DNA of 49,356 bases from a virus (lineage: Duplodnaviria > Caudoviricetes). Shown one piece after another: positions 12,885 through 33,243 of the stretch. The translations under genes were made by a program, and so were the position numbers. The stretch spans positions 1 to 49,356 of the IMG/VR virus record IMGVR_UViG_3300033153_005402, one strand, 5' to 3'. Below the pieces are notes generated by a model. It saw only the letters and a list, made by a program, of their open reading frames with translations. It did no database searches and was not told the DNA's origin. Numbering within the stretch: the first letter of the stretch is position 1; each line of letters begins with the position of its first letter.

Positions 12885-12885
12885 C

Positions 12886-13663: not shown

Positions 13664-14518
13664 TTAGTCAACTAAAGTTTTAATACTAAAACATCTACAG
13701 TTGATAATTTCACTAGCCACATTCTCCCCCGTTGCATTTGGATCACCGGGATAGAGTAATTTTACCCTCCCCACTTGGTAAAGATCTGCTAGGGGAATGC
13801 CGCTATCAGAGTAGCGTGATTCCGCCGCAAGGTGGCTATCTCTTACCCTGTCGTCACTGGCAGTCACCCATTCCTTTAGAAAGTTCCCACCCGTTGCTAT
13901 GGCCGCCTGTTCGTTGCCGTAGTTCTGGGCATTGTGAACCTCTGTTCGGGCTATCATCTGAGCCCTGTTCCTCGCGGTTATCACCCGGGAGATCCGGCGG
14001 TCGCCAACTCTGACAGATACAGGGAGATCCCCTATGGTATCCTTGATCTTTTCCGCGATCTGTCTAGGATTCAAACCCTCTTGTAATCCCCTCATGACCA
14101 CCCTGCGGATCTTTAACTTGGTTGTATTGACGATTTCAACAACCTCATTAGCCGCCCATAGTGCTACAAACTCCTCTAGGTTTTCTTCAAAGATTGTTTC
14201 CGCACCCTTCCGGAATATGCCCGTCAATACCCCTTTCCTAGCATCGTTGTATTCTTCAAATAGCCATTGGGCATTGAACATGGCGGTTTTCTTAAATAGG
14301 GCAATGGCGGTTTCCTCCCACTGTTCATTTACAGTATCAATGATATCTAGTGCCTCGTTTAGATCTCCTGTTTCCTCGTAGGCACTAGCGGCTAGATTAG
14401 ACTGTTTGCTAATCAATCTGGCATAGGGTTTGATCGCCGCCTTCTCAAACTTGGCATTAGCCCGGTTAATCCGGGTTACCATCTTCCGTTTCTCAAACAG
14501 GCTAGTTAGATTTAACAT
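13664..14518 (-). CDS. Minor head protein, Mu gpF/SPP1 gp7-like
   Basis: RAQMIARTE...KEWVTASDDRVRDSH...YPGDP...INCRC motif. Confidence 0.92.
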   Translation of the reverse strand: MLNLTSLFEKRKMVTRINRANAKFEKAAIKPYARLISKQSNLAASAYEETGDLNEALDIIDTVNEQWEETAIALFKKTAMFNAQWLFEEYNDARKGVLTGIFRKGAETIFEENLEEFVALWAANEVVEIVNTTKLKIRRVVMRGLQEGLNPRQIAEKIKDTIGDLPVSVRVGDRRISRVITARNRAQMIARTEVHNAQNYGNEQAAIATGGNFLKEWVTASDDRVRDSHLAAESRYSDSGIPLADLYQVGRVKLLYPGDPNATGENVASEIINCRCFSIKTLVD

Positions 14519-15866: not shown

Positions 15867-15881
15867 GGATGCCCCCTTTGG

Positions 15882-17117: not shown

Positions 17118-17119
17118 GG

Positions 17120-17605
17120 TTAATTAAAATCTTCGGCCTTCACACCCTCGGGGAGATTAACCTTTCTCTTGATACCAATAACCTCACCAGAAATATTAAG
17201 TTTCTGGGGAGCATCCAACCCTAGTATCTTACATTTTCTTTCAATGATACGATCAATCTGACTAGCAAAGGCGGGGTTACCGTCTGATTCAACGGTCTTA
17301 GTATAATCCCCACTCTTACCACCGGAGATAACGATATCTTTATCTTGTTTTGATTTCTCCCAGGCCTCCCACATTTCCTGTTTCAATACGTCCAACTCTT
17401 TCAACTGTTTTAGCATTGATTCCTTGATATCCGTTAGGTACTCTTCCCGCCATTCCGCCTTGGCCCTTCTCAAGTCAGCAAATACCATGGAAACTTTATT
17501 GCCTAATTCCTTGCCGATTTCTTTTAATTGATAACCCTTTAGATGCATGGCGGCGGATATCTTTGTATCCATGGCCTTTTTATATTGCGTCCGATGTTTT
17601 CCCAT
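17120..17605 (-). CDS. terS: Terminase small subunit
   Basis: N-terminal HTH-like segment and GNPAF...RKCKILGLDAP motif, directly upstream of TerL. Confidence 0.75.
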   Translation of the reverse strand: MGKHRTQYKKAMDTKISAAMHLKGYQLKEIGKELGNKVSMVFADLRRAKAEWREEYLTDIKESMLKQLKELDVLKQEMWEAWEKSKQDKDIVISGGKSGDYTKTVESDGNPAFASQIDRIIERKCKILGLDAPQKLNISGEVIGIKRKVNLPEGVKAEDFN

Positions 17606-18344: not shown

Positions 18345-18644
18345 TTACGTTCCTTCCGTTTGAGTTTTGGATTTTACATAATCCTCTATAAGTTTAATAC
18401 TATTTTTTAGGGCGTTAAGATATCCATGGGTTGAGCTACTAAGGGCGTTTATAATTGGTAGGTTCCAGCGGCCTATGGCTATTTCCCCATGGCTATTATA
18501 TTTATTATCTATTTCCACAATGGGTATATCAACGATCATTTCTATATCAGAGAAAGGGCCCTCCAGTTTCGTTAACAAAACTCTATCACCACCGATGGTT
18601 TTATATACTAATATACTCTTAATCGGATCGGTTGTTTCTTCCAT
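18345..18644 (-). CDS. Hypothetical protein
   Basis: GAAAGGGAG RBS, operon packing. Confidence 0.7.
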   Translation of the reverse strand: MEETTDPIKSILVYKTIGGDRVLLTKLEGPFSDIEMIVDIPIVEIDNKYNSHGEIAIGRWNLPIINALSSSTHGYLNALKNSIKLIEDYVKSKTQTEGT

Positions 18645-18655
18645 GATCTCCCTTT

Positions 18656-19021
18656 CTAAGACGTTACTATTTTTACCTTAAAACTAACATCCTCGTTAAT
18701 CCTTTTGATTAGCTCTTTCCTCTTGTCCTCATTCCATAGGAGATGAGATATGAACCGCTGAATAACCCAATCCTCTTTCATGAGTTGTTCTAAATACATT
18801 TCGGCATGATGTACCTCTAACTCCCCGGCTGGTATGTCATTTTTCTTTAGCATCTCTGGCATATCCAGAATCATTTTATGGGCGGCCAAATGCCCGATCT
18901 TGTCATTGTATTTTTCTATGAATGCCTCAATAAAACTCCCATACTCCCACCTGATCTCCTGTTCGATCTTGTCGTATACCTTGGCCTCGGTCCTGTCTTT
19001 TTCAATCGTTTCATTGTCCAT
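18656..19021 (-). CDS. Hypothetical protein
   Basis: AAAGGGA RBS, operon packing. Confidence 0.7.
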   Translation of the reverse strand: MDNETIEKDRTEAKVYDKIEQEIRWEYGSFIEAFIEKYNDKIGHLAAHKMILDMPEMLKKNDIPAGELEVHHAEMYLEQLMKEDWVIQRFISHLLWNEDKRKELIKRINEDVSFKVKIVTS

Positions 19022-19032
19022 GTTATCCCTTT

Positions 19033-19614
19033 CTATTGAAATAATGCGCCTTGTTTATCGTCCCTGTCTACCTGATTACCCCATACCTCCCAACCGGGAA
19101 CCCTCTTCCGGGAAAACAACTCTATCTTACGGGTCTGGGTTCCGAATAGTTTATCAATCAATTCCCGGAACAAATGCGGTTTGGCTGAATGGTCTAGGAC
19201 CGGGTGTAAATGAACCTGATGAATCCCGGCATTCTGCCGGGGAAGTCCCTTCCCCCGGGTTGCCAGCAAACACAATTCAGCATTGGCCCGGGTATATCTG
19301 CCCATGCCCATGAAGAGGCGGAACCCGCCCCCGGGATAAGTCTTAATCCAGGTAAAGGCGTTTGTCTTGTAGGTATACCCCCAGGCCTTGATAACGGCCA
19401 ATCCTTCCGCTAATAGGGGCATTGTAACCCAACATAGTAAAACCGAATTCTCGGCCGCCAGGGAGGCAACAGGAAGGTTACAGATATCCTCAACCCCCAT
19501 GCAAGGGTAATGGGATTCCGCCCCGCCCCCATGTGATTTTGATTTATCGTTGTAGCTCCAGGGCGGATCGGCCAAAACAATATCAAACTTCCCTTCTATC
19601 CCTTCTAAATTCAT
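19033..19614 (-). CDS. MT-A70 family adenine methyltransferase
   Basis: VLADPPW, AWGYTYKT, GRYTRANAELCLL, HSAKP and IELFSR...GWEVWGNQ motifs. Confidence 0.93.
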   Translation of the reverse strand: MNLEGIEGKFDIVLADPPWSYNDKSKSHGGGAESHYPCMGVEDICNLPVASLAAENSVLLCWVTMPLLAEGLAVIKAWGYTYKTNAFTWIKTYPGGGFRLFMGMGRYTRANAELCLLATRGKGLPRQNAGIHQVHLHPVLDHSAKPHLFRELIDKLFGTQTRKIELFSRKRVPGWEVWGNQVDRDDKQGALFQ

Positions 19615-19653
19615 TCTATTTCCCCTCAGTTTTTAAAAACTAATTGTAGCAAA

Positions 19654-19845
19654 TCAACGAAACTTAATCAAATCCTGGGCGCATTTTCCGCAATAATCTT
19701 TTATCCATTTGCCCTCACCATAGACCTTCACACATTGGGCGCAACCCTCAACCCCGCACTTGTAGCAGATAGCCAACTCCTGATCAAAACTTCCGCATAC
19801 CGGACACATGGGAACAATTTCTTTATTTCCCTTCTTTCCCTTCAT
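19654..19845 (-). CDS. Small Zn-finger protein
   Basis: Four CxxC pairs. Confidence 0.65.
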   Translation of the reverse strand: MKGKKGNKEIVPMCPVCGSFDQELAICYKCGVEGCAQCVKVYGEGKWIKDYCGKCAQDLIKFR

Positions 19846-20057
19846 TTTCTATCCCTTCTTTTGATAGGTGGCCATCCTCACATGATACGGCCTTTGCCCT
19901 GGTTTCATAAATGTAATTGCATGTGTCACACCGCCACCGGATATAATAACTCCCATTAATCTGAATCTTTAATCTCTTGGGCATGATCGCCTATTCTATC
20001 GCCCAAACAATACAGACTGCAACCAAATAAATTATGATAACGGCCGCCGTTAGCCAA

Positions 20058-20279
20058 TCAATTATCCCCTCTTGGGGTACTTGCTCCCCGTCTTTCATGT
20101 TCTCTAATATCCTGGTTTGATTGACGAATGGCAAGGACAAATAGCAGGGGCCACAAAACAATAATAGGAATTGTGGCTATCCAGTATCTATCATTTCCGC
20201 CGTGATGGATAATTATTACATTTGCAATTGTCCAGAACAATACACCGATCCCAATGTAAATATTAATTGCTATTGTCAT
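20058..20279 (-). CDS. Small two-TM membrane protein
   Basis: Two hydrophobic segments, and an ATGA overlap with the upstream ORF. Confidence 0.6.
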   Translation of the reverse strand: MTIAINIYIGIGVLFWTIANVIIIHHGGNDRYWIATIPIIVLWPLLFVLAIRQSNQDIREHERRGASTPRGDN

Positions 20280-20419
20280 ATTGCGGTCTGCCTTGCCCAC
20301 TTCAGGGCGTTTTCTTTTCTTCTTTTTATACTGGCCGCCTTTTTTTTATTTCTTTTTGCCGCCTTGGCTACCCGATTCTGATTAATACTTTGTATGATTT
20401 TTTCCTTGTCTTTTTTCAT
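20276..20419 (-). CDS. Small basic protein (47 aa), not in the ORF track
   Basis: AGAAGGGATTG RBS, then MKKDKEKIIQSINQNRVAKAAKRNKKK...WARQTAI*, filling the gap between ORFs. Confidence 0.55.
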   Translation of the reverse strand: MKKDKEKIIQSINQNRVAKAAKRNKKKAASIKRRKENALKWARQTAI

Positions 20420-20431
20420 TTTCAATCCCTT

Positions 20432-20926
20432 CTATTTATCGTAATAGTCCCAAACATATTTCATTAACGGATACCAGATTACAAAGTTAATACCGGCCAC
20501 AACTACCACAAGTAATCCGAATCCGGCATACCAACCAAAGGTTATCTTTTCCTCTTCCATGTTAACTCCCTTCCAGTTTCCCAAAACACAATGTTCATAT
20601 CTCCATTTCTCTATTCTTTCCAACTCCCTATATTCTTTCATGAATTCATCGGACAACCACGTTTCCCCATAGGAATATTTTGGGCATGGCCTAATATCGT
20701 TTGGTATATCCTGAAAACTCGGGCCGCCTTTTAGAGTTTCCATTTTGTCTGCCCATTCTGATTTACCGCCAAATTCCCGATCCGCCTCTTCCTGAGTTTT
20801 AATAAATATAGATTTAGGGCAAGGCGGGGGGCAACTCGCCCCCCTGGGACCGTTCATCCTGGAGGGGATGATCGTGTTATTAGACCTTGCCGTTTTATTT
20901 ATCTGTTCTTCCATGGTTTCCGCCAA
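20432..20926 (-). CDS. Mosaic accessory protein with sheath-like and terminase-like segments and a C-terminal TM
   Basis: See findings. An internal RBS and ATG at 20560 precede the TM part. Confidence 0.7.
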   Translation of the reverse strand: MAETMEEQINKTARSNNTIIPSRMNGPRGASCPPPCPKSIFIKTQEEADREFGGKSEWADKMETLKGGPSFQDIPNDIRPCPKYSYGETWLSDEFMKEYRELERIEKWRYEHCVLGNWKGVNMEEEKITFGWYAGFGLLVVVVAGINFVIWYPLMKYVWDYYDK

Positions 20927-21252
20927 GATTGTAATGGTTTGTTCTCCATGCCCTTTAGTTTCTCCATGGTCTGATCCAGGGATTCCAGGATAACCGAATC
21001 AATTACCTCCCCGGTCTTGGTATCTATCGCCGCCCTCAGATACTCTATGACGTTTGATTGCATGTGGGCCCTTAACCTTTCCTTCTGGATAATCGCTAAC
21101 CGGATATATTCCATGGTCTTTAGAATGGCCGTGTAATCCAGACAACAGGGGATATTCCCGGGCATTAGGGGCCCCTCCATTTTCAGATCTTCCAGTAATT
21201 TTATTACCGTCTTTAACTTCTTTTCATAGGGCATCTGACTAAAAAGGGACAT
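20899..21252 (-). CDS. Hypothetical protein
   Basis: Overlapping operon packing. Confidence 0.65.
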   Translation of the reverse strand: MSLFSQMPYEKKLKTVIKLLEDLKMEGPLMPGNIPCCLDYTAILKTMEYIRLAIIQKERLRAHMQSNVIEYLRAAIDTKTGEVIDSVILESLDQTMEKLKGMENKPLQSWRKPWKNR

Positions 21253-21502
21253 TGTGGGCCATCCTGTTCCGGGTTACGGGTTTTTTTCTCTGGGGGGCTG
21301 GGCGTTTCCAGTTTCTAAACTTGGGATTCCTGAGTTTCTTTTCCCGGGAAACGATATTGGAATGGGCCTTGCATAAATAGATCCTCTTCCCCGGTCGCCG
21401 GGTTCCCACAATCCACACCTGATTAGCGGGGCGGTTCTTGCATTGGTTACCAGTTTTCTTTTTAACCCAGGTACAACCGGGTTTAGATTTATCTGTTGTC
21501 AT
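21239..21502 (-). CDS. Basic hypothetical protein, possible Zn site
   Basis: C...C...CxxH pattern, overlapping starts and stops. Confidence 0.6.
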   Translation of the reverse strand: MTTDKSKPGCTWVKKKTGNQCKNRPANQVWIVGTRRPGKRIYLCKAHSNIVSREKKLRNPKFRNWKRPAPQRKKPVTRNRMAHNVPF

Positions 21503-21750
21503 TGTTTCCCCTTCTTAACTTCGTCAATTTCATCCCATGAAAAATAACAATAATCACTATTTCCAATACTACATTTTTTAACATCATTTTTAAATCCAAT
21601 ACGCAATGGCCTTTCAGATTCATCGGCATATTCTATTGTTCCGATCCTGCCTTTACATGCCCGGTTACATTCGGGATCAATACTTTCTGGCCTTGCTATC
21701 TTAACCTTTCTGCCAACTGCTGTTCTTTTTAATGCTCTCAATTTACCCAC
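21499..21750 (-). CDS. Hypothetical protein, possibly SH3-like
   Basis: VGRKVKI...GRIGTIE pattern, operon packing. Confidence 0.6.
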   Translation of the reverse strand: MGKLRALKRTAVGRKVKIARPESIDPECNRACKGRIGTIEYADESERPLRIGFKNDVKKCSIGNSDYCYFSWDEIDEVKKGKQ

Positions 21751-22064
21751 CCCTGGGGATTATTTAGTATTTTCAACAGTCTGTCTATTTCGTCTATTTC
21801 CATTTCTACCTCATAACAAATACCCCTTATCACCGGATCTTTTTTATCCAACCATATTACAGACTTTCTCAGCATACTTTTAGAATTGTTTAAAACTCTA
21901 ATTATTATTTCTTTGGTTCTGTTCACTTCCTTGGGTTTCTCTTCTGGTACTAGAGGGGGGGCAACGGGCCTTTCCCCATTAGGCCCCCAGGGGGGAGGAT
22001 TGCAATTCCAACATATACCATGTGGCAACAATGGAGCGTTACATTTTGGGCAATCGTCACTCAC
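21738..22064 (-). CDS. Zn-ribbon hypothetical protein
   Basis: CPKC...CWNC motif. Confidence 0.65.
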   Translation of the reverse strand: MSDDCPKCNAPLLPHGICWNCNPPPWGPNGERPVAPPLVPEEKPKEVNRTKEIIIRVLNNSKSMLRKSVIWLDKKDPVIRGICYEVEMEIDEIDRLLKILNNPQGWVN

Positions 22065-23338
22065 TTGCCCACCCCCTCGGGTTCCTCAATACTGGCGATC
22101 TCCCCCTCTGAGATCTCAACTTTCATAGCGGGAGGACCGCCTTTATCTGTCGCATCGTTAATAACCTCTACCCATACCTGATAATCGTTTTCGTCTGCAA
22201 TTTCTTTTATTGCCCGGAAGTTATTTTCATCGAGAAAGGCGGCGTTCTTTATCCTGATAACTTTAATCTTGGGATTAAGTTTAATGGCTATGGCCATTGA
22301 GATCTTAATCTTTTCCGCATCTGAACACTGGCCGAACGGCGTTCCCTGGTAGGTTACCCCGTTCTCATCAACCGATAGGCCCTCCAGGGGAAAGGCGGCA
22401 CTGGTCATTAACTCGTTCTTGCATGTCTCATGGAGATCTATTTCTTTATCTTCTTTTTTTAGTAACAACCTGAGATCGTTTAATTCGTCTTTTAGTTCTT
22501 TCCTGCCCTGCCATTTAACGGCCTGTTCATTGTGGCCCTCTATTCCCGTTATTTTGTTCTGTATGGGGGCGGTATCAACTGGTTTTATTTTCTTTAATTT
22601 AACCTTGGCGGTCGCTATTTCCTCTTCAACCTGTTCTAGTTGTTGTTTTTTCTTTTCTATGTCGTCATACAAAATAACTATATCGTCTGATATTTCCTTT
22701 GCCTTAGTTTCTTTTTCGCCAAGATCTGATTTGTATTTCGATAGCTCCCGGTTAATCGCCTCCCCGGCCTGCAACTCTTTAAACAATTCCCCGGCCTCTA
22801 ATTTCTTTATCTCTTTTCCCAGGGGCTCCCGGCCCAACTTGGTTTCAACCGCCTTGTAATCCCGGTTGATATCCCGCCGGGCCTGTTTGGATTCGTCTAT
22901 TCGGGCATCATGAACCCCTAACTCATCTTTGATATCAGCTAGGGTTAATATCGTCTCCCTCTGTTCCTTTGCGGGGGCGGCAACAAACGTTGACGGATCA
23001 TAGGTAACCGCATTGAAAAGAGAATTCAATAACTCCTGTGGGGATTTCTGGACCTCCCCCTTTTTATTCTCAATCCGGAGGTAGGAACCCTTGCCGGACC
23101 ATGTACGGGTAACCAGGATCTCCCCCAAGTCTAATTCAACCCTGGCCTTTTTCTGGCCCCGGCGGATCGGTTCCTTGGGCTGGACACGGGTTCCACCCAG
23201 GGCACAAAACAGGGCCTCAAGGATAGAGGTTTTCCCCTGGGCGTTCTTGCCCTTGATAATCACCGTGTTAGTTGTGGGCTCAATCTCAACAACGTTTAAC
23301 CTAAGAAAATTCTCAATCGTCAACCTAACTATTTTCAT
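22061..23338 (-). CDS. SMC/RecF/Rad50-like ATPase
   Basis: IENF, Walker A GKNAQGKTS, central coiled coil, SDAEK signature-like motif and degenerate Walker B (IRIKNAAFLD). Confidence 0.88.
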   Translation of the reverse strand: MKIVRLTIENFLRLNVVEIEPTTNTVIIKGKNAQGKTSILEALFCALGGTRVQPKEPIRRGQKKARVELDLGEILVTRTWSGKGSYLRIENKKGEVQKSPQELLNSLFNAVTYDPSTFVAAPAKEQRETILTLADIKDELGVHDARIDESKQARRDINRDYKAVETKLGREPLGKEIKKLEAGELFKELQAGEAINRELSKYKSDLGEKETKAKEISDDIVILYDDIEKKKQQLEQVEEEIATAKVKLKKIKPVDTAPIQNKITGIEGHNEQAVKWQGRKELKDELNDLRLLLKKEDKEIDLHETCKNELMTSAAFPLEGLSVDENGVTYQGTPFGQCSDAEKIKISMAIAIKLNPKIKVIRIKNAAFLDENNFRAIKEIADENDYQVWVEVINDATDKGGPPAMKVEISEGEIASIEEPEGVGK

Positions 23339-23573
23339 TGTTAATCCCTTTCTTTAGATATATTTTTTCTCTGAAACTTATTACAAATCTATCTCCTATT
23401 TGTTTGCATTCATCTACTGTGAAATCATGCTGTATGTTTTCTGCCAAGTGATTCACTACATCATTTCTCATGTGTCGTATGGTTTCATTGGTCATTCTTT
23501 TGTTCACATACTTTTTTAATACGTTGTCCATCAGGATCTTTGTCGCGGCATTAATAAAATCCTCATTTTTCAT
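23325..23573 (-). CDS. Hypothetical protein (possible sheath C-terminal-like mini-domain)
   Basis: Operon packing, see findings. Confidence 0.6.
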   Translation of the reverse strand: MKNEDFINAATKILMDNVLKKYVNKRMTNETIRHMRNDVVNHLAENIQHDFTVDECKQIGDRFVISFREKIYLKKGINNENS

Positions 23574-23811
23574 AACCAGAACCCAAATCCTTTTCGTAAT
23601 AATGCCTTGGTTTGATCCTGTTCTTAATCCTGGGTTTAATGGGCTCGGGGGGTTTGGTGTCTCTGGCGATGTCTGCCGGATCTTTGAACGGGGCCGGATC
23701 TTTGATTGGGGCCAACCCCATGATTGCCCTTTTCTGGTTTACCGTCAACCACGGGGGAACCGGCGGAAGGGGAAGAGGGGGCGGCGGGGCTGGCGGTCCT
23801 ACTAAATGCAT
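23563..23811 (-). CDS. Pro-rich protein with a portal-like segment
   Basis: WLTVNQKRAIMGLAPIKD flanked by Pro-rich linkers. Confidence 0.6.
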   Translation of the reverse strand: MHLVGPPAPPPPLPLPPVPPWLTVNQKRAIMGLAPIKDPAPFKDPADIARDTKPPEPIKPRIKNRIKPRHYYEKDLGSGYEK

Positions 23812-24120
23812 TTACCTTGGCCCCATTTCATTTACCGCAATATCGGCCATGGTGAAAGAGCATTTTACCAAAATCCTATAGCCCTCTTTTGTGTCCGGAT
23901 GATTTTTTGCTATTGTTTCCATAACTGTAGGATTAGCACAAAACCCGGTCAATGCCGCCATGGCAAACCGATCTCTAAGGGTTTCCCTATTGGCCATGTC
24001 TGCCACGGAACCCGGCAATGGTTTAATCCCTAATTCTTTTAATCTTTGCATTAGTTCCGGGCCTTCTAATTCATAATCTTTTTTTCTATCCTGCCCCGAC
24101 AAGTTCCCTTGATCTTTCAT
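23812..24120 (-). CDS. Phage hypothetical protein
   Basis: TLRDRFAMAALTG...MAD motif, common in small phage proteins. Confidence 0.7.
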   Translation of the reverse strand: MKDQGNLSGQDRKKDYELEGPELMQRLKELGIKPLPGSVADMANRETLRDRFAMAALTGFCANPTVMETIAKNHPDTKEGYRILVKCSFTMADIAVNEMGPR

Positions 24121-24298
24121 TCTTAAAATTCCCTTCTATTCGTTTATAGTGTTTACATTCTGGGCAAGAATAAAATCTCATTCTCTTTTTACTGCCCAAC
24201 CGTTGCCGGTTCTTACTCGGTTCGTATGTCCCAAGTAGATCCATACTAACATTTTTGCCCAACGTTCTGCAACTTTCACACAAAATTTTTCTGGGCAT
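24086..24298 (-). CDS. Small Zn-ribbon protein
   Basis: CESC...CPEC motif. Confidence 0.62.
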   Translation of the reverse strand: MPRKILCESCRTLGKNVSMDLLGTYEPSKNRQRLGSKKRMRFYSCPECKHYKRIEGNFKNERSRELVGAG

Positions 24299-24300
24299 AG

Positions 24301-24717
24301 CTAGATTCCTTCCAACTTGGCCATAACATCAATGATGCCCTTTTCGTTATCCTTCTTTTTTGATTCCTCCCTAGTCTTTTCCTCTTTTACCTTTCTCTCC
24401 TGGGCCGCCATTTCCGCCATTAATCTTAGGGCTGTTCTCTGGCATGGCATGGGATTGGTTTCTTTAACCGCCTCCCCCTCACAGATACCATCTGTTTTAA
24501 TAACATACTCGGAATTCTTGAATGATATCTTCCGTTTAATATCGCTCAAGGTTTCCGGATGATAAACCCTTAACTGCATTGGAAACCCTGTTATTGCATC
24601 CGGTATTTCCACAAACTTTCCGGTATAAACCCTATCCATAATTCCCTTAAAGGCCTTTTCGTCAACCTCTTTTAGCCCTATTCCTGGTACTCTCTTTGAT
24701 TCCTTTAGCTCAACCAT
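24301..24717 (-). CDS. Hypothetical protein
   Basis: Operon packing with ruvC. Confidence 0.65.
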   Translation of the reverse strand: MVELKESKRVPGIGLKEVDEKAFKGIMDRVYTGKFVEIPDAITGFPMQLRVYHPETLSDIKRKISFKNSEYVIKTDGICEGEAVKETNPMPCQRTALRLMAEMAAQERKVKEEKTREESKKKDNEKGIIDVMAKLEGI

Positions 24718-25387
24718 GGATCAATCCCGCCTTTCTTGGCCTTCCCCGGCCCCGTTTATGTTTGGTATTTGTTAGGGTCATGGCCTCTTTCAAGGTCATA
24801 CCGTCTTTTGGTACTTTTCCGCCCTTCTTTCCCTGGGTATTACCCTTTATTTTCAACAGGGTAACGGCCCCGAGAATGAACCGGCACTTATCAGCTAAAT
24901 TTAATCCCCGCAATTTATCATAGTGCAACTCTGGGATCTTGGCCAGGGCGACCGCCGCCGCATCCGCAACGTCAATATCTTTTAGGGTGATATTAAATAC
25001 TCGGGAAACCGCCTTTCTAACCTGGGTTTTCGTTAACCTGCCAGAGCCCATGAAGGCCTTAACCGTCATGGGGTTGATCTCATGGGAGGCAATCCCAGAA
25101 TGGGCGGCCGCTAAATGACAGATGGCCCGGTATTGAATTGATTCATGAGTAGTTATCATCGCCTGGGTTGTCATGGATTCTTGAATCATAAAATCCGGCC
25201 CACACGTTTTTATTATCTGAATCATGCGGTTATAGAAATCATTGATTCGGTCGCCATGGTTTTCATATTCCGTAACCACGGGAACGATCCCATAATCTAA
25301 AATCTTCTCTGGCGAGAATTCTATCAATGCCCACCCGGTTGTATTGCCGGGATCAATACCCAAATACCTTTTGGTCTGGAAGTTCAT
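24710..25387 (-). CDS. ruvC: RuvC-like Holliday junction resolvase with a C-terminal AT-hook extension
   Basis: LGIDPG..TGWA, conserved E, NPMTVKAFMGSGRLTKTQV and DVADAAAVAL motifs. The tail contains RGRGRPRK. Confidence 0.88.
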   Translation of the reverse strand: MNFQTKRYLGIDPGNTTGWALIEFSPEKILDYGIVPVVTEYENHGDRINDFYNRMIQIIKTCGPDFMIQESMTTQAMITTHESIQYRAICHLAAAHSGIASHEINPMTVKAFMGSGRLTKTQVRKAVSRVFNITLKDIDVADAAAVALAKIPELHYDKLRGLNLADKCRFILGAVTLLKIKGNTQGKKGGKVPKDGMTLKEAMTLTNTKHKRGRGRPRKAGLIHG

Positions 25388-25656
25388 TTTGGTTTATCCC
25401 CCTGTAAATAGTATTTACACTCCTGGCACATGTGGTGGCCATCTCCTTCACAGTCCGGAGGCGGCCCCCACTTGTAGTCGGCAACGTTGCCATTTAATAC
25501 AAACTGATCACAACCTTTTCGAGATACTATTTTTCCGTAATAGAACCTGATAACCAAACAGGGTAAAAGGCAAATATATAAATACTTTTTATCTGTATTT
25601 ATGAACATTCCCACCCATAGATCCCGCCATTCAAATAATAATTTAAATCTCCCCAT
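25384..25656 (-). CDS. Hypothetical protein
   Basis: FEWRDLWVG...YICLLPC motif followed by a Cys/His cluster. Confidence 0.65.
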   Translation of the reverse strand: MGRFKLLFEWRDLWVGMFINTDKKYLYICLLPCLVIRFYYGKIVSRKGCDQFVLNGNVADYKWGPPPDCEGDGHHMCQECKYYLQGDKPK

Positions 25657-26195
25657 TACCCCGCCCTCTCTAGTTCTTTCCCGATCAACCTGTTTACCTT
25701 GATATGGTCAAAGATCCGGGTTTCCTCATCCACCTGTTTGTATTTTTCAACTAGGGCACCAAACCATGATTCCCCTGCAATACCGGAGAACCCCAGATCC
25801 CGTTTCTTTGCCTCGGCCAAACACCAATTGCAATACTCATCAAATGTTATCCGGGGTTTAACCTTTCTCTCCCTGTTGCCCTCAAGTAATCCCCGGGCTA
25901 ATCGGAATATCTTTGAAACCTTAGTTGGATCTCCCCTGTTGTTCTTGTCTCCTGCCTTTCCTGGGGGGGATTCTTTCTTTTTAAACTTCTCCTGATATGC
26001 CCCGCGAATCTCTGGCAGAGAGATCTTGGCCATCTTCTTATCAAGTTTTTCTGCCAAATCTCCTAAAGTCAACATGAGTAGATCATAATCAGATTCGGCA
26101 TGATCTTTCCTGAATGCTATTTTCTCACCATTGGACATCTGGCGGCCGGTATTCTCCAGAAATTTAATGCCCTGTTCTATTTGGTAATCCTGCAT
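25656..26195 (-). CDS. Hypothetical protein in the replication operon (possible helicase loader)
   Basis: Position downstream of the initiator, and an AGAAGGGATTAAC RBS. Confidence 0.5.
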   Translation of the reverse strand: MQDYQIEQGIKFLENTGRQMSNGEKIAFRKDHAESDYDLLMLTLGDLAEKLDKKMAKISLPEIRGAYQEKFKKKESPPGKAGDKNNRGDPTKVSKIFRLARGLLEGNRERKVKPRITFDEYCNWCLAEAKKRDLGFSGIAGESWFGALVEKYKQVDEETRIFDHIKVNRLIGKELERAG

Positions 26196-26212
26196 GTTAA
26201 TCCCTTCTTAGA

Positions 26213-26563
26213 TTATAACCTTGGGTTGTGGGTTTTCTGGCTGGCCGCCTCATCGCCATGGCTCCATGCCTCTCCCCTTTGGTATGCCTCTGAGGTTGTG
26301 TCGTGATCCCGGATAAGGGGCGGTCGCATTGCGCTCCAGTTATTTAGTAGATTATCGGGGGATTTATTAGAAAACTTTTCATTCCCAAACAACCTCAATG
26401 CCCGGTCCTTAATTTCCTCATCGGTCGCCTCCTGAATCATTTTAATTATTGATTGCTCATCCCATCTCGAAAACAATATTTTCCCCTCTTCTTTCTCTCT
26501 CTGTTTTTTCCACCAAAAAAACAACCCCTTCTTGCGTTCCAAAATATTATTAAATTCAACCAT
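26213..26563 (-). CDS. Replication-operon helical protein
   Basis: CAGGAGG RBS, directly after the initiator. Confidence 0.55.
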   Translation of the reverse strand: MVEFNNILERKKGLFFWWKKQREKEEGKILFSRWDEQSIIKMIQEATDEEIKDRALRLFGNEKFSNKSPDNLLNNWSAMRPPLIRDHDTTSEAYQRGEAWSHGDEAASQKTHNPRL

Positions 26564-26603
26564 GTTTATCCTCCTGAAATTGTCTTATATATACTGAATG
26601 CCT

Positions 26604-27218
26604 TTATTGAATAAGGGCCTTTTTTTTTAACTTTCTCAAATCGGAGAAATCAGAGAAACTCGGATGTGCAACAGGAACGGCGGAGTCCTGTTTTATTTCT
26701 TTACCTTCTTTATCTTCTTTTCCTTCTTTTACTTCTTTATCTTCTTTAGATCTATAGTGTGTGTGACCCTCTGTGTGACCCTCTGTGTGACCCTCTGTGT
26801 GACCCTCTGTGTGACCCTCTGTGTTATCTTTCCATATTGAATTTTGATAACTATGCCAATTTATTATTGTTACAATAGTATAGTGTGCGTGACCCTCTGT
26901 GTTAATCACCCCTAATTTTTTAAGTGTTTTTAGGCTAGTCACTGTGTTACTGTCTGTGTGACCTAGATATTTTGAAAATTTCCTTGTGTAAATCAATGCC
27001 TGTCCAGGGGTTAAATCAACAGTATATCCTCTACCCTCAACATCCTTTGTCTCGTTTTTGTAAGATGCCTCGAGTAATAACTCTAAGAAAAAGTATCTAA
27101 TTTTTTTATTGGGATGGTTCCAGATCTTTGATTCTCTTATTGCTCTATGGAGCAAGAGAAAACCTAAACCACGGCCAACTTTTAATTTTCTCTTTTTTGC
27201 CCTACCCTTCAAAACCAT
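26604..27218 (-). CDS. Phage replication initiator (lambda O/DnaD-like winged helix)
   Basis: GFLLLHRAI...IW...LLLEA...PGQ...YTIVTIINWHSYQ motif, with internal iterons. Confidence 0.8.
   Translation of the reverse strand: MVLKGRAKKRKLKVGRGLGFLLLHRAIRESKIWNHPNKKIRYFFLELLLEASYKNETKDVEGRGYTVDLTPGQALIYTRKFSKYLGHTDSNTVTSLKTLKKLGVINTEGHAHYTIVTIINWHSYQNSIWKDNTEGHTEGHTEGHTEGHTEGHTHYRSKEDKEVKEGKEDKEGKEIKQDSAVPVAHPSFSDFSDLRKLKKKALIQ
26761..26824. repeat. Iteron-like tandem repeat (GTGTGACCCTCT x5), probable replication origin
   Basis: Five perfect 12-bp units inside the initiator gene, a variant copy near 26887-26902, and an adjacent pyrimidine/AT-rich tract. Confidence 0.8.
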
Positions 27219-27370
27219 TAAAACCCTTGCCCCTTCTGCTAAATTTTGTTATTTAAAAACCCCACCTGGAGGATGGTACTTTGGCGAACCAGGGCCCCCA
27301 GACAGGGTTTTTTTATTATCATTCACGGCCAAAGTTTCATGATTACATTTTGAAATAACAAAGTAGGACC

Positions 27371-27399
27371 ATTCTAAAGAATCGCATAGCCAAATTCAA
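27371..27399 (-). promoter_or_regulatory. Sigma70-type promoter for the leftward operon
   Basis: Minus strand TTGAAT-N17-TAGAAT. Confidence 0.65.
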
Positions 27400-27449
27400 G
27401 AAAGAAATACTTAGCCTATTGTGGCTTTCCGTTGCCGGAAAACCGCCCC

Positions 27450-27479
27450 TTGAAATCGCCTGCCACCCTTTGGTAAAAT
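27450..27479 (+). promoter_or_regulatory. Sigma70-type promoter for the rightward operon
   Basis: TTGAAA-N18-TAAAAT with an extended TGn. Confidence 0.6.
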
Positions 27480-27527
27480 GGATCTTTATCTGAGGGATTA
27501 TTTTAACACTGACAGAAGGGATTGAAC

Positions 27528-27953
27528 ATGAACGATCCAAAAGTTTCTAATGCCTTATTGAATTACCTTAATTGGGAAGGGATTATGAGCGCCCCAAGAT
27601 ATGCGGGGGGCCATGAGGATGTAATGAACATTTTGTTCCAGGGCGCTAAAGTTGTTTTGGCATTTATTCAAGATGAATATCAAGGATACATTGGCTATAT
27701 CTACAAAATGCCTTATGGGAAATATGTAATTATTAATGATTCTTTTGGTTCCTGTGGCGGTTGTGATTCTTGGGAAGAGGCAACCGATGAAGAGGTCAGA
27801 CAATTAGTCAAAGAATTAGCCATAAGTTATTCTCAGGAGTTTGGCAGTCTGGAAGAGGTGAAAGATTACCTGAGAGAAGAATCAGAAAAGGAATTCAGTA
27901 GTGATTGGGCAAAGGGGTTACTTGGCAACTGGCATGAATTAAAAGACGTATAA
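27528..27953 (+). CDS. Phage hypothetical protein
   Basis: DEYQG...DSFGSCGGCDSWE motif, first gene after the promoter. Confidence 0.75.
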   Translation: MNDPKVSNALLNYLNWEGIMSAPRYAGGHEDVMNILFQGAKVVLAFIQDEYQGYIGYIYKMPYGKYVIINDSFGSCGGCDSWEEATDEEVRQLVKELAISYSQEFGSLEEVKDYLREESEKEFSSDWAKGLLGNWHELKDV

Positions 27954-27954
27954 C

Positions 27955-28173
27955 ATGGCAACTAAACTCAAATGCCCTAAATGCGGCGGCCGGGCCCATG
28001 TAACAGAACGATTTCCCAAACCCCCATTCTCTTTTTCTGGTAGGCCCCTACCCTCAAAGAAGGGGGCGGAATGCTCTAACTGTTTCCTGAGCATTGGCGG
28101 TTTGAAAACATTTAAAGAGGTAAAACAAATCTGGAGAGATTTAATAGTTGTAATAGAAAGGATCGAATCATGA
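27955..28173 (+). CDS. Zn-ribbon protein (Lar-like pattern)
   Basis: LKCPKCGGRA...CSNC...W pattern. Confidence 0.6.
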   Translation: MATKLKCPKCGGRAHVTERFPKPPFSFSGRPLPSKKGAECSNCFLSIGGLKTFKEVKQIWRDLIVVIERIES

Positions 28174-28589
28174 CACCCGCCAAGAGAAAAGAAATCCAAG
28201 AGGCACTATTCCTGACCATTGATGCCTATCAGGAAACTATAGGGAATGTAAATTGTCACTTCAAGAACCGCTATTTTAAATACGGTTCAACCGAATGCTG
28301 CTACCTATGCCATGCTGTTGGGATAGATGAGATTAACAATATAGCGCAAGGGATTTATTGTCATTTATGCCCATTAAAATTAACAACAAGAAATACGGCG
28401 CATGAAGTGGGAGCAAACGTTAGTAATGATTGTTGTGAGGGAACGTTTAAAGAGTTGAGATTGTGCCGGGATATTGTTATTAACGGCGATGATTTCCCAG
28501 AGGTTAAAATCCAGACCGCCTTAAAAACCCGCCTAGCCTGGATAAAACGCCGGGCACTGGCCAACGGCTGGAAAACGGAAAGGGATTAA
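28170..28589 (+). CDS. Cys-rich hypothetical protein
   Basis: CYLC and CHLCPL motifs, operon packing. Confidence 0.7.
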   Translation: MTPAKRKEIQEALFLTIDAYQETIGNVNCHFKNRYFKYGSTECCYLCHAVGIDEINNIAQGIYCHLCPLKLTTRNTAHEVGANVSNDCCEGTFKELRLCRDIVINGDDFPEVKIQTALKTRLAWIKRRALANGWKTERD

Positions 28590-28591
28590 TT

Positions 28592-28831
28592 ATGAATATT
28601 AAATTTGGAATCGATGTTATATTGGTTCTTATTTTCATGGTCTTAAAATTAACTAATTATATTGAATGGTCCTGGTTCTGGGTTTTTTCCCCTGTTATTC
28701 TAATGCTCTCTTTCCGTATTGTTCTTGGGATTTATCACGGGTATAAACTGGAAACTGATCCAATATATAAACTGCATCATTTGGTTTCTGATATAAACAG
28801 ACAGGCATCGAACAGAAAAGAAAGGGATTAA
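28592..28831 (+). CDS. Small membrane protein
   Basis: LKLTNYIEWSWFWVFSP motif with two TMs. Confidence 0.72.
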   Translation: MNIKFGIDVILVLIFMVLKLTNYIEWSWFWVFSPVILMLSFRIVLGIYHGYKLETDPIYKLHHLVSDINRQASNRKERD

Positions 28832-28833
28832 CC

Positions 28834-29064
28834 ATGAACCTTAAATGTTTCTTAGGTTTCCACGATTGGGAATATTCTAAGGGAATGGGGGAAGTACATT
28901 TGTTTTCATCAATACATTTTAGAGACTGTGCCAGATGTGGAAAACGACAATCATGGGGTTTTATTGAGCGCCTTGATGGCATTCCATGGATTACTGAGGA
29001 TAAAAGAGAAGAGGAAAGAACGCCGCCGGAAGTTAGACGTAAAAATGTTAAATGGAAGAGTTGA
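28834..29064 (+). CDS. Small phage protein (DUF1660-like)
   Basis: CFLGFHDW...CARCGK motif. Confidence 0.65.
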   Translation: MNLKCFLGFHDWEYSKGMGEVHLFSSIHFRDCARCGKRQSWGFIERLDGIPWITEDKREEERTPPEVRRKNVKWKS

Positions 29065-29300
29065 CCATGGAGTCATTCAGAGAAACCCTGTTGGATTTTT
29101 TGGAAAAAGAAAAGGATATAAAACGCCAGTTAAAAAAGGGCGGTCCCATGCTGATTAAGGCACTAGTGAAAAGATATGGTAGCTATCGCCGGGTTGGAAA
29201 AATCACGGGCCATTCATTCGGCCACTTATCCAAAGTGGTTAAGGGAAAAGAGAATATAAGTCCGGTATCATTTTTAAAACTGAGAAGGTATCTGGATTAG
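29052..29300 (+). CDS. HTH (Cro/XRE-like) DNA-binding protein
   Basis: SYRRVGKITGHSFGHLSKVVKGKENIS segment. Confidence 0.7.
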   Translation: MEELTMESFRETLLDFLEKEKDIKRQLKKGGPMLIKALVKRYGSYRRVGKITGHSFGHLSKVVKGKENISPVSFLKLRRYLD

Positions 29301-29303
29301 ATC

Positions 29304-29540
29304 ATGAACATATACGGCCTATTAACATTGATTGTTGGGACCTATCCGGGCATGTCATGGAGGGAAACTAGGATTGGGAGTCAAGATAACCCGACAGAAT
29401 GCATTGAAATATACAACAAAAATAGACCGGGGAGGCAACTTATTACAATGACATATCTTGAAAACTCTTTAAGTCAAAAAGAATTGATAGATTTATATTG
29501 CAGAAAGGTTTGGAAAACAAACATGAAAGAAAGGGATTAA
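29304..29540 (+). CDS. Hypothetical protein
   Basis: Operon packing. Confidence 0.6.
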   Translation: MNIYGLLTLIVGTYPGMSWRETRIGSQDNPTECIEIYNKNRPGRQLITMTYLENSLSQKELIDLYCRKVWKTNMKERD

Positions 29541-29542
29541 CT

Positions 29543-29887
29543 ATGGCTAACACTAAACACGAATGGGAAGAAATGTGGTTGGGGGTTAATGGCGAAAAGA
29601 CAATGGTTAATCAAGGGGCCATTGTAAACAACGTTGATAAAATTATTATTCTCCTGGATAAGATTACCACCGTCTTAGAAAATCATAACACTATAGGGGA
29701 ACAGTACCGCGATCTCCAGGATGCCTTTTTGAAGGTTGGTCGGAGGTCTGATAAATACAGGTTATTGTTATTGGAGATTAAAAAATATTACATCGATCAA
29801 ACGGTCTGTTATTGCAATGAAGATCCATCATTGCCCCCCTGTTACCCATGCAAATTTTTAAAAAAGATAGAAGAGGTTTTATCATGA
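29543..29887 (+). CDS. Hypothetical protein
   Basis: Start follows GAAAGGGATTAA, with a C-terminal Cys cluster. Confidence 0.65.
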   Translation: MANTKHEWEEMWLGVNGEKTMVNQGAIVNNVDKIIILLDKITTVLENHNTIGEQYRDLQDAFLKVGRRSDKYRLLLLEIKKYYIDQTVCYCNEDPSLPPCYPCKFLKKIEEVLS

Positions 29888-30090
29888 CCGACCAAGAACC
29901 CGCAACCGAAAAACAAATGGAATTGATTGATAAGTTCTGGGATAAACTCCCGGATCATCTGACCAATGAGGAATACGAGAAACATAAGATGGGCCGCCCT
30001 GTCAAATTCACAAAGGCTAGGGCCTGTAAACTGATTGGCGATCTCCTGGGAAAGAATGAAAAATATAGCAGGCCGGTGATGTCATGGTAA
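29884..30090 (+). CDS. Hypothetical protein
   Basis: PATEKQ...TKARACKLI motif. Confidence 0.62.
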   Translation: MTDQEPATEKQMELIDKFWDKLPDHLTNEEYEKHKMGRPVKFTKARACKLIGDLLGKNEKYSRPVMSW

Positions 30091-30542
30091 ATGAAAAAAA
30101 AGAAATAGATTATGAATATACCCATTTCCCCACCTGTCCCTTTTGCGGCTATGAAGATATAGATTGGTGGGACGGCACCACCTTGAATTCCGATGGCGAT
30201 CATGAAGTCTATGAATGCGGAAACTGTTGTGAGAAATTTACGGTCCGGATTTCGATATCAACTGATTTTACTTCTGAGTTTATTAAATATCATGAGTCCA
30301 AAGAAAAATGCTGTTCCAGATGTGAAGAGTATGTGGCTAAACATGATATGTGTCAGAATAGATTGTTTACCAGGGATGAGGAAACGGATGCTGGCGGAAG
30401 GCCTGAACCCGGTTGGGATTGGCCCAAAGACAAGGATAGTCAGGGTTGTTCTGAATGGTCGCTATCGCATGTTATTAGATTTAAACAACAGATAGAAAGA
30501 ATGGAGAAAATGGAAAAAGAAGAGGGGGTTAAAAATGTCTAG
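30084..30542 (+). CDS. Zn-finger protein
   Basis: CPFCG, CGNC and CSRC motifs. Confidence 0.7.
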   Translation: MVNEKKEIDYEYTHFPTCPFCGYEDIDWWDGTTLNSDGDHEVYECGNCCEKFTVRISISTDFTSEFIKYHESKEKCCSRCEEYVAKHDMCQNRLFTRDEETDAGGRPEPGWDWPKDKDSQGCSEWSLSHVIRFKQQIERMEKMEKEEGVKNV

Positions 30543-30927
30543 TTGTAGCTGTCTAGTTTCTGGCGGGGTTGATGAATGCGTAACACTGTTACGGGTTACA
30601 AATCCGATTGCCAGGAAATCCCATACTTGTATGGAATGTAACCGGGATATTCCAAAAGGTGAAAAATACTATTCGGAAAACTTTGTTTATGAAGGCGATT
30701 TCTCCTGGCATAAAACCTGTGATGATTGCATGAGCATACGGGAATTGTTCGGCGGTTGTGGTTTCATGTATACAAGAGTAATAAGAGATTTAGAGGATAT
30801 GATTGATAATTGCGGCGGTCAAATATTCTGTAATGATTTCCGGGAGTTAACACCGGCCGCCCGGGAGAAGGTTATAAACATGGTTGAGGCCCAATGGGTA
30901 AGAGAAGAGGAAAGGGAGATAGCGTGA
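30535..30927 (+). CDS. Phage Zn-binding protein
   Basis: ARKSHTCMEC..I.KGEKY...KTCDDC motif. Confidence 0.75.
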   Translation: MSSCSCLVSGGVDECVTLLRVTNPIARKSHTCMECNRDIPKGEKYYSENFVYEGDFSWHKTCDDCMSIRELFGGCGFMYTRVIRDLEDMIDNCGGQIFCNDFRELTPAAREKVINMVEAQWVREEEREIA

Positions 30928-31286
30928 TGCCTAGATGGAAAATCAAATTTAAAGATGGTATGGAAACAACTCTTGTTCTGGAGAAAGGGAAGGGGTTTTC
31001 CTTTGTGAATTCTGAGGTAAAAGGAATAGAGTCTGTAACGGTTGTTGAAGATCCCCCCGGCCCTGGGCTGGTTGAAATAATAATAAATAAACGTTATTTT
31101 TTAGAATTACATAAATGCCCAAAAGATCAGCTATCCCCAGATAGTTGTAAAATATGCCGCGATAACTTTGAAGGTTTCAAACATAAGGGAATGGAATTAC
31201 CCCAATTAACCCCCATTTATCTTTGGACAAAACGGAATTCCAAATCAATCGCCACCCATACTTTCTGCAACGGGGTTAAACCGTGA
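30927..31286 (+). CDS. Accessory protein with a baseplate-J-like segment
   Basis: Operon packing, see findings. Confidence 0.65.
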   Translation: MPRWKIKFKDGMETTLVLEKGKGFSFVNSEVKGIESVTVVEDPPGPGLVEIIINKRYFLELHKCPKDQLSPDSCKICRDNFEGFKHKGMELPQLTPIYLWTKRNSKSIATHTFCNGVKP

Positions 31287-31546
31287 CCAAGAAAGAGGCC
31301 CTGGATATCATATTAAATATTCTGGATAGCCTGGATAAAGACGCATTGAGGGATGGCCAATGGTTTAATGTATCCTTTGCAATGGGGGTTCTGACCGCCC
31401 CGGAACCAATTCACCCGGCGTTAAAAGGTTTGGGATTACTTTATAGGCAATTAATGATTCCTAAAAAAAGAGGGATGATGTTATCTTCTGTATTTTTGGC
31501 AGACCATACAAAATCGGTAATCAAACGGGCAACCGGAAGGGGTTAG
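31283..31546 (+). CDS. Hypothetical protein
   Basis: GTGA overlap with the upstream gene. Confidence 0.6.
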   Translation: MTKKEALDIILNILDSLDKDALRDGQWFNVSFAMGVLTAPEPIHPALKGLGLLYRQLMIPKKRGMMLSSVFLADHTKSVIKRATGRG

Positions 31547-31547
31547 C

Positions 31548-32060
31548 ATGGCAATTACCCATAGGCAATTATTCTTTATTAGCACAAACCAAAAGTTTTA
31601 TATTCAATGTAACCAATGCGATCACATTGAAATTATTCGTTTAAGTAATGAAATGTATAATCCGGATTACCGCAATAGCCATTGTTCCCATTCTTATTGG
31701 GAATGCCCAAGATGCGGGGCCAAATATGCTACCGAATGGGATCCGGAATATAAGAAATCCGCAAGGTTTATAAATAAATTTAAATTAGATTCCGTTGCCC
31801 TGACCAATAATCCGGTCAACCCAAACTGTAAAATAAAGTCTGTTGATGGTGTCCCCGTTCCGGATACCCCGGAGATCCTAACCGATCTCTGGAATTTCAA
31901 GGGGGATGTTGTGGCAACAGAGGCAACCTGTCCCTGTGAATGTCATCCGGAAATTGCGAATCACAAAATGGGAAGATGTCCAATAGAAGTATTAGAGGAT
32001 AAACTAGGGGAATTCCTGACCAAGTGGGAAGAGGCGATTAAAGAAAAGTTTGGGGGTTAA
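31548..32060 (+). CDS. Zn-ribbon protein with a prohead-protease-like segment
   Basis: CNQC and CPRC motifs, then KLDSVALTNNPVNPNCKI. Confidence 0.7.
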   Translation: MAITHRQLFFISTNQKFYIQCNQCDHIEIIRLSNEMYNPDYRNSHCSHSYWECPRCGAKYATEWDPEYKKSARFINKFKLDSVALTNNPVNPNCKIKSVDGVPVPDTPEILTDLWNFKGDVVATEATCPCECHPEIANHKMGRCPIEVLEDKLGEFLTKWEEAIKEKFGG

Positions 32061-32061
32061 C

Positions 32062-32361
32062 ATGATAATAGCAAAGAAGGTTGAGAATACAGACCTAGAG
32101 GTCGTCTGCCCCAAATGCAACAGTGAACAATTAGTTATTGCTGGCCAAGACAAAGAGGCTGATAAAACTTTGGATTATTATGGGGGGGAGTTCTATTGCC
32201 GCAAATGCAAAGACCTTTATGACTACATATATTTCCCCAATCCTACCTTGTTTAAATTAATGAGATTGGTAATGGCTAGGGATGAAAAGATAAATCAAAT
32301 GGAGGATGCGTTTTCAGAAATTAGCTACATAGCAGACAATAAGATGCTACATGACAATTAA
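32062..32361 (+). CDS. Zn-ribbon protein
   Basis: CPKC...CRKC motif. Confidence 0.65.
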   Translation: MIIAKKVENTDLEVVCPKCNSEQLVIAGQDKEADKTLDYYGGEFYCRKCKDLYDYIYFPNPTLFKLMRLVMARDEKINQMEDAFSEISYIADNKMLHDN

Positions 32362-32572
32362 ACAAGATGAATTAAATTTCGGGGATTTCCTTTTAACCAA
32401 CAATAGTTTATTAGATCGGACAAAGGAAATGGACCAGAACCCCCGCCTCTATTATGTCCTAGATAAATGGTCCGATAAGGGCTATTGGGAATACGGCGTT
32501 TCTCTCCGGTCCGGTTGGTTAACAGAAGATGGTAGGAAAGAAATGGAAAGGCGGCGTGATGGCGGAAATTAA
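32351..32572 (+). CDS. Phage hypothetical protein
   Basis: GYWEYGVSLRSGWLTEDG motif. Confidence 0.65.
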   Translation: MTIKQDELNFGDFLLTNNSLLDRTKEMDQNPRLYYVLDKWSDKGYWEYGVSLRSGWLTEDGRKEMERRRDGGN

Positions 32573-32861
32573 ATGTCTTAATTGTGGAATAATTGATCCC
32601 GTTGGGGCTATCTCCAAGAAAATAGAAACATGGGGTGGGGAGGGAGGCAGAGAGGTTTATTTTTGTGATATTTGCGAGAATACCCATTTGGGGTATGCGA
32701 CCAAAAATGATATCACGGGAAGAGGGATAGAGGGAGGGGAAGAAAAAAAGGCTCAGGCATACATTGCCAACACTATAAGAAAAGATATTAATTCCGCCCT
32801 CAATGAAATATTAATGGCCGTTAGCCATGCCGCATACATGAGGGAAACTAATGCCCATTAA
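32559..32861 (+). CDS. Zn-ribbon protein with a helical C-terminus
   Basis: CLNC...CDIC motif. Confidence 0.62.
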   Translation: MAEIKCLNCGIIDPVGAISKKIETWGGEGGREVYFCDICENTHLGYATKNDITGRGIEGGEEKKAQAYIANTIRKDINSALNEILMAVSHAAYMRETNAH

Positions 32862-33243
32862 ACCGGAGAATAGAAAACTCTATCCTCCCAACTGGAAGGC
32901 CCTTTCCCTGGAGGTCCGGGAAGAGGCGGGAAATAAATGTGAATGGTGTAAAATTCCCAATCATAGATGGGGTTGGAGAGATCCCAAAACAAAGGAATTT
33001 TATATGGGAGTACCGCCAAAGGGGGTTAAGGGTTTTATGGTTGTCTTAACGGTCGCCCACCTGGATCAGAATCCCAGGAACAATAAACGTTCTAATCTCC
33101 GGGCCCTCTGTCAAAAACACCACTTGGCCCACGATGCCAAATACAGGAAAGAGGCCAGAGAAAAGAAGATAAGGGGTAGCGGTATTCATGAATTGTGGGT
33201 TGACAAAAGGGGCCACCGGGTTGATCCCGGTTCGATAGTTTAG
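32851..33243 (+). CDS. HNH-family nuclease-like protein
   Basis: YPPNW...CEWC...VLTVAHLD..P.NN...NLRALCQKHHL.HD motif. Confidence 0.82.
   Translation: MPIKPENRKLYPPNWKALSLEVREEAGNKCEWCKIPNHRWGWRDPKTKEFYMGVPPKGVKGFMVVLTVAHLDQNPRNNKRSNLRALCQKHHLAHDAKYRKEAREKKIRGSGIHELWVDKRGHRVDPGSIV

Follow-up and report, generated by a model that had tools for sequence, protein, structure and literature searches.

The window that we analysed is the whole of one virus contig (IMG/VR record IMGVR_UViG_3300033153_005402; Duplodnaviria, Caudoviricetes), of 49,356 bp, and it encodes a myophage. Its structural genes form a minus-strand operon for a PBSX-type terminase, an HK97-type portal, an S78 protease, the capsid and a Mu-like contractile tail. 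Away from this operon lie two divergent arms of mostly small genes (17840-27218, minus strand; 27522-38735, plus strand; 51 genes, 6,526 amino acids), which also encode a methylase, RuvC, an SbcC-like ATPase, a DnaD-like initiator and an exonuclease. From position alone we infer that these are early genes. A first-pass annotation had proposed that five small open reading frames (ORFs) in the arms carry, in seven segments, short mimics of virion and packaging proteins. All five ORFs exist at this distance from the structural operon, and the panel shrinks to three or four. The terminase, portal and protease segments are real and the baseplate J segment is probable, while the two sheath segments are weak or at chance level and a Walker B assignment was wrong. 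The proposal is thus partly confirmed: in-frame, foreign-looking segments of virion-building proteins are present in three, probably four, small early genes (Table 1). ORFs are named below by their first coordinate.

Table 1. Coordinates of the ORFs, virion-protein pieces and comparison genes
Feature	Position	Strand	Remarks
Orphan patchwork ORF	20432..20926	-	ATG at 20914; weak sheath-like pieces, terminase piece, then fused membrane gene
Terminase large-subunit piece (end of ATPase domain, PBSX-type)	20567..20665	-	residues 88-120 of ORF 20432
42-amino-acid membrane gene	20432-20560	-	own strong ribosome site and ATG at 20560; in-frame fusion to terminase piece
Possible Mu-type sheath N-terminal piece	20675..20731	-	12/3,000 shuffles and 4/2,566 controls score as high
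Claimed second sheath piece	20729..20821	-	160/2,566 controls score as high
Pro-rich 82-amino-acid orphan ORF	23563..23811	-	
HK97-type portal C-terminal motif T-x-N-x-x-R-x-x-x-G-L-x-P	23695..23754	-	20 residues match
81-amino-acid prophage early gene ending in HK97 portal C-terminal motif	L385:2339-2584	+	P0003-P0005, P0022, P0023, P0025
119-amino-acid orphan ORF	30927..31286	+	
Probable baseplate J (wedge) piece	31011..31088	+	
170-amino-acid ORF: Zn ribbon, protease piece, Cys-containing tail	31548..32060	+	Zn ribbon: phrog_1315, E 2e-4
Prohead protease (S78-like) piece, 38 amino acids	31731..31844	+	residues 62-99 of ORF 31548
Ordinary HNH endonuclease, outside the feature	32851..33243	+	phrog_1571, E 4e-23
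Own head and Mu-like tail operon	386..17605; further part 47567-49281	-	comparison set; runs from 17605 to 386, resuming at 49281

Unless an expectation value (E) is given, significance is stated as the P of a single comparison (HMMER, Z=1). Backgrounds were taken from shuffles (5,100 over the 51 arm ORFs; 1,000 or 3,000 in other tests) and from 2,566 called control genes (317,572 amino acids, 574 loci), a set that comes mostly from structural regions and whose gene caller missed the L385 gene described below, so that it understates the background. Shallow profiles (2-13 and 2-65 sequences) run on whole ORFs placed no claimed piece above shuffles. When cut segments were compared with 13 profiles, the claimed family ranked best for five of the seven, with P of 0.006-0.03 only. 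Whole-library scans of full ORFs weakly backed two claims, the portal in ORF 23563 and the head protease in ORF 31548. Because these shallow profiles and library scans gave little, better-matched families were collected.

The terminase large-subunit segment proposed for ORF 20432 held up, and sequence comparison supports it as genuine. A 9-residue pattern from this ORF matched at least 120 viral stretches, and all 80 that were fetched are terminase large subunits, of a subfamily other than that of the phage's own terminase. A 50-sequence terminase profile gave ORF 20432 a P of 1.3e-6 (runner-up of the 51 ORFs, 0.01), a score reached by none of the 5,100 shuffles (best, 5e-6); the profile is partly circular, its members having been picked by the pattern from the same ORF. 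A matrix of 45 terminases chosen without the pattern also placed the piece first of the 51 ORFs, and none of the controls reached its score. Blind tblastn of the piece returned three records, the sole annotated one being a terminase that matches in frame and at the same place (E 5; 11 of 29 residues identical by our own reading). A full-length profile of 65 terminases of this kind gave a P of only 0.006 on the piece. The ORF has the conserved stretch with which the ATPase domain ends, and the match is limited to it; the full ATPase and nuclease domains are absent. No terminase match to ORF 20432 was found in Pfam, PHROG or NCBIfam, PDB sequences gave no match of note, and Atlas features of residues 30-125 gave no usable match. 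A search with the phage's own terminase alone returned no loci, and tblastn of ORFs 20432, 23563 and 30927 against cultured phages was uninformative.

The piece in ORF 23563 is likewise supported as genuine, as had been proposed, and corresponds to the C-terminal stretch of HK97-type portals, which we take to be the part labelled the 'crown'. It matches PHROG phrog_12 (E 0.039 for the whole ORF, 0.012 for the segment alone) and four separate portal clusters, and a 66-portal profile gave the ORF a P of 8.4e-7 (best of 5,100 shuffles, 4e-5). When a library of 105 families was scanned, the two top matches were the portal piece and that of the terminase. Of the consensus T-x-N-E-x-R-x-x-x-G-L-x-P it keeps six invariant columns, with Q in place of E. 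In the solved RcGTA portal, the stretch that it matches forms the end of the chain; the phage's own portal is RcGTA-like (PDB 6TBA, E 5e-63), and the full portal fold of about 400 amino acids is absent from the 82-residue ORF.

We searched for the portal consensus as a pattern, which requires the E that ORF 23563 lacks. The 80 loci recovered gave 76 protein-level matches, 70 of them in long proteins. One locus, L385, carries the same motif in an 81-amino-acid gene in the early region of an unrelated prophage, directly after an ORF that is presumably antirepressor-like. The L385 gene scored P 8e-9, though L385 itself was picked by the pattern. Its family forms three clusters at 90%, and 19 of 81 columns vary among the six sequences compared; three of these fall inside the 15-column motif, all away from the motif-defining residues, which are intact in all six. 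The gene was not found in a search of genome contigs.

A side observation concerns the neighbouring 82-amino-acid ORF at 23325-23573 (minus strand), which has a weak full-length match (E 0.058) to an 88-amino-acid PHROG annotated as a virion structural protein. We rejected it as a sheath C-terminus, and as a capsid gene, since in the record that was inspected the tblastn 'capsid' match sits on the other strand. ORFs 24301, 29304 and 23812 were rejected as sheath or portal pieces by the profile test.

The prohead protease segment of ORF 31548 also survived scrutiny and is supported as genuine at the level of sequence. Its match to phrog_1028 improved from E 0.0095 for the whole ORF to 4.9e-4 for the segment alone. 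In tblastn searches with the piece (E 2-10), 52 of 56 records were Streptomyces phages, the annotated ones among the matches listed being maturation proteases, and in another search 34 of the 40 matches listed, of 67 records, were annotated prohead proteases, from Herelleviridae. The three top matches by ESM features were prohead-protease clusters (0.77-0.78), which we treat only as a lead. A 37-sequence protease profile, three of whose members had been found through ORF 31548, gave the piece a P of 7.7e-5. With 12 independent proteases, 13 of the 2,566 controls scored as high, and the 12 of these that were listed are true proteases. The phage's own protease is similar to the piece too (0/1,000 shuffles reach the score); where the family has an E-I-S strand, the piece reads S-V-A. 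Its exact pattern matched no viral stretch, and none of four candidates scored in a search for longer proteins. The whole catalytic domain, with its His and Ser motifs, presumably the catalytic ones, is absent; at 38 residues the piece is too short for an enzyme. The Zn ribbon of this ORF was considered as a lambda-type terminase piece and rejected, other Zn ribbons scoring alike. At least two CxxC pairs occur in 13 of the 51 small genes of the arms (17840-38735).

We regard the baseplate J piece in ORF 30927 as probable from its sequence. It has no library match, and the full baseplate J profile gave the ORF a P of 0.005. A motif matrix ranked the piece first of 51 ORFs (1/3,000 shuffles and 0/2,566 controls score as high), the scored stretch having been chosen afterwards. 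The pattern V-x-G-V...G-x-G-T-V returned four baseplate J proteins among 18 matches.

The two sheath segments claimed for ORF 20432 fared less well. The first may be a weak piece of a Mu-type sheath N-terminus, and the second does not rise above chance. The Mu-type sheath profile gave at best P 0.004 on segments of this ORF, and both pieces jointly were equalled by 3 of 3,000 shuffles. The second segment matches PF25605/phrog_2222 equally weakly; the sheath-consensus pattern returned sheaths in 10 of 10 cases, one of which shares nine identities with it. In ORF 32851, the stretch taken for a terminase Walker B is the tail of an HNH nuclease. The ORF matches phrog_1571 over its full length, including the invariant Cys/His columns, and belongs to a common HNH family (409 records). 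All four HNH homologues that were aligned with it match it over their own tails, no terminase is among its best profiles, and the Walker B score is equalled by 596 of 1,000 shuffles.

None of the terminase, portal, protease and baseplate pieces reaches a Pfam match, and an NCBIfam scan gave no structural match for the claimed pieces. In the PHROG scan, none of 39 antisense or off-frame ORFs matched at E<=0.05. Five other real genes of 60 matched structural PHROG families at E 0.03-0.07, so the portal PHROG value is not decisive by itself. Domain-level annotation misses these pieces, as none passes a library threshold. One alternative is that they are plain structural modules or convergent stretches, generic helix-cap or beta-hairpin units that play no part in recognition. 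The portal motif does read like a capped helix, and matching by eye misled in the Walker B, in one sheath piece and in the 23325 sheath candidate. None of the natural control genes, however, reaches the terminase or baseplate scores, and independent libraries give the same family for the portal piece and for the protease piece. We consider this explanation improbable.

The frame and rarity of the pieces are also informative. Three of them stand at P of about 1e-6 to 1e-7. When all six frames of 17650-38780 were scanned with 65 models, the ten rows below 1e-4 were all in frame with genes and the best off-frame value was 2.2e-4; the ten map to five places, of which three are the pieces and two are matches of coiled-coil or Zn-ribbon composition. 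A short piece in an unrelated scaffold at P<=1e-5 occurs twice in the 6,526 amino acids of the arms and not at all in the control genes. No DNA match longer than 16 nt exists between any piece and the rest of this genome. Their codon use is typical of the phage. Because the pieces seem to be borrowed, in frame, centred on motifs and recurrent elsewhere, a binding role of some kind is favoured, and we regard it as slightly the better expectation.

Virion and packaging proteins are patterns read by bacterial sensors, since phages cannot change them easily. Among binding roles, decoy action best fits a phage in which, as here, no integrase was detected (none among 91 proteins scanned with PHROGs, many ORFs still lacking annotation), as would fit a lytic phage in need of counter-defence. 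Three or four early genes would then be chimeras, each with a 20-38-residue virion or packaging piece on an unrelated scaffold. The pieces may have been acquired from other phages through non-homologous recombination and then kept. The chimeric ORFs would be made early, before the real virion proteins appear, and could bind a sensor, or a blocker of assembly, of the host or a prophage and yet not activate it. That an unrelated prophage family keeps an 81-amino-acid early gene with the same portal motif counts for this reading. Our best reading, put forward tentatively, is that the early ORFs act as decoys for bacterial proteins that recognise virion parts.

The pieces could instead be recombination debris, with non-homologous recombination dropping bits of structural genes into fast-turnover early ORFs, where the in-frame ones survive briefly and have no function that relates to their origin. 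Several observations lean this way and tell against decoys. The carriers are orphans: a homologue search with ORF 23563 recovered it alone among 788 candidates, and ORF 20432 has no homologue among 5.8 billion or 1.84 billion proteins. Positions conserved in the families are partly lost, the portal piece keeping six of eight and the terminase piece 9 of 16, where family members keep at least 13 (a count that is inflated because the pattern selected the members). ORF 20432 is a patchwork to which the gene downstream is fused, and it has the look of a raw fusion (a ribosome site lies inside it at 20560; pLDDT of the Atlas model, 0.50). Detection at this distance is limited to conserved motifs, and out-of-frame inserts would be purged anyway. 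Debris is harder to reconcile with the lack of off-frame pieces below 2e-4, although the off-frame sequence is about five times as long, with the lack of comparable pieces in the control genes, and with the conserved mini-gene family at L385. Debris is nearly as likely as decoys, because selection cannot be seen in orphan genes and because the search is biased towards motifs that are conserved and in frame.

Another binding role is the poisoning of assembly, in which the pieces would insert themselves into the portal rings, packaging motors or baseplates of rival phages or of satellites and ruin these structures. The terminase piece does belong to a different subfamily from the phage's terminase, and small phage-borne proteins directed at virion assembly exist, namely Tab (PMC10884400) and Tai (PMC11364771), which we liken to these ORFs by description only. 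Tab, however, targets tail assembly and is expressed from a prophage, whereas no integrase was found here in the scan above. The protease piece, being similar to the phage's own protease, would carry a risk of self-poisoning, and a 20-residue piece would have to outcompete the same segment within the native chain. Poisoning is the least probable of the explanations weighed here.

If the ORFs are decoys, their targets are unlikely to be Avs and CBASS, two of those named in the first-pass annotation. Of 14 Avs families, at least 12 wrap around the whole core of the target (10.64898/2026.01.04.697583), Avs2 burying about 2,800 square angstroms (PMC13601566), and CBASS responds to protease cleavage, not binding, and needs protease activity (10.64898/2026.03.04.709575). 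Because Avs wraps whole folds and CBASS senses cleavage, pieces of 20-38 residues fit both badly. Lit and CapRel read short motifs (10.64898/2026.01.04.697583) and Upx is modelled as binding unfolded strands (PMC13601566); such short-motif or strand-binding recognisers fit the pieces better and would be the likely targets. Gol, a short capsid peptide, also weighs against decoys, because it is reported to activate Lit instead of blocking it (PMC9712102).

The closest precedent, by analogy, is DSAD1, a small protein of phage origin that imitates the tail tube, a virion trigger, and occupies the tail-tube pocket of DSR2 without activation (PMC10973363). DSAD1 rests on a structure and an assay with one target, whereas here borrowed sequence from several virion proteins sits on unrelated scaffolds. 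The Gol motif of T4 gp23 with Lit, and CapRel, resemble our case in that a short virion-protein motif suffices for recognition; there the motif lies inside the real capsid protein and triggers defence (PMC9712102). Each piece holds, in frame, one hallmark segment of PF04466 (PBSX-type terminase), PF04860 (HK97 portal), PF04586 (prohead protease S78) or PF04865 (baseplate J), but covers less than a tenth to a fifth of the full-length protein, with no full domain. No description of decoys made from virion-protein fragments was found in the literature searched, subscription papers and bioRxiv supplements lying outside it. Passages of the EVADES survey (10.1101/2025.06.06.658234), whose supplementary tables may bear on the point, mention no decoys cut from virion proteins, and neither do those of a 2026 review (PMC13728456), 10.64898/2026.06.04.730250 or PMC9958956. 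Trigger mimicry itself is known from DSAD1; if the decoy reading holds, what is new is a variant of it that uses borrowed virion-protein sequence.

Other features of the genome were observed. The virion module is a mosaic in which an RcGTA-like portal and PBSX terminase are joined to a Mu-like contractile tail (14502-15866 and 6518-7990). Six 12-nt tandem repeats lie at 26748-26836 within the DnaD-like initiator gene (26604..27218), with more copies at 26885 and 26942; they are likely replication-origin iterons. A common stretch of ribosome site plus start precedes several early genes (23334-23355, 28804-28836, 29513-29545, 33500-33532, 37375-37407), and three ORFs upstream of it finish in an E-R-D tail that it encodes. 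This shared stretch could seed gene shuffling. A stand-alone protein that by eye is response-regulator-like lies amid lysis-type genes at 40068-40502 (minus strand), with unnamed PHROG matches down to E 4e-17.

In its widest form, which we consider unlikely as a whole, the decoy reading would hold that phages cut the most conserved, hardest-to-change surfaces from terminase, portal, head protease and baseplate proteins and mount them on disposable early scaffolds as anti-immunity decoys, one genome fielding a panel against several sensors and the mini-genes mapping the surfaces that are read. The L385 gene is a better test object than the orphan ORFs of the window. If the decoy reading is true, the display of cut-out copies of virion proteins would be a general form of counter-defence, and each piece would point to a virion surface that is bound by a sensor. 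If the pieces are debris, they still show the birth of orphan phage genes from bits of core genes.

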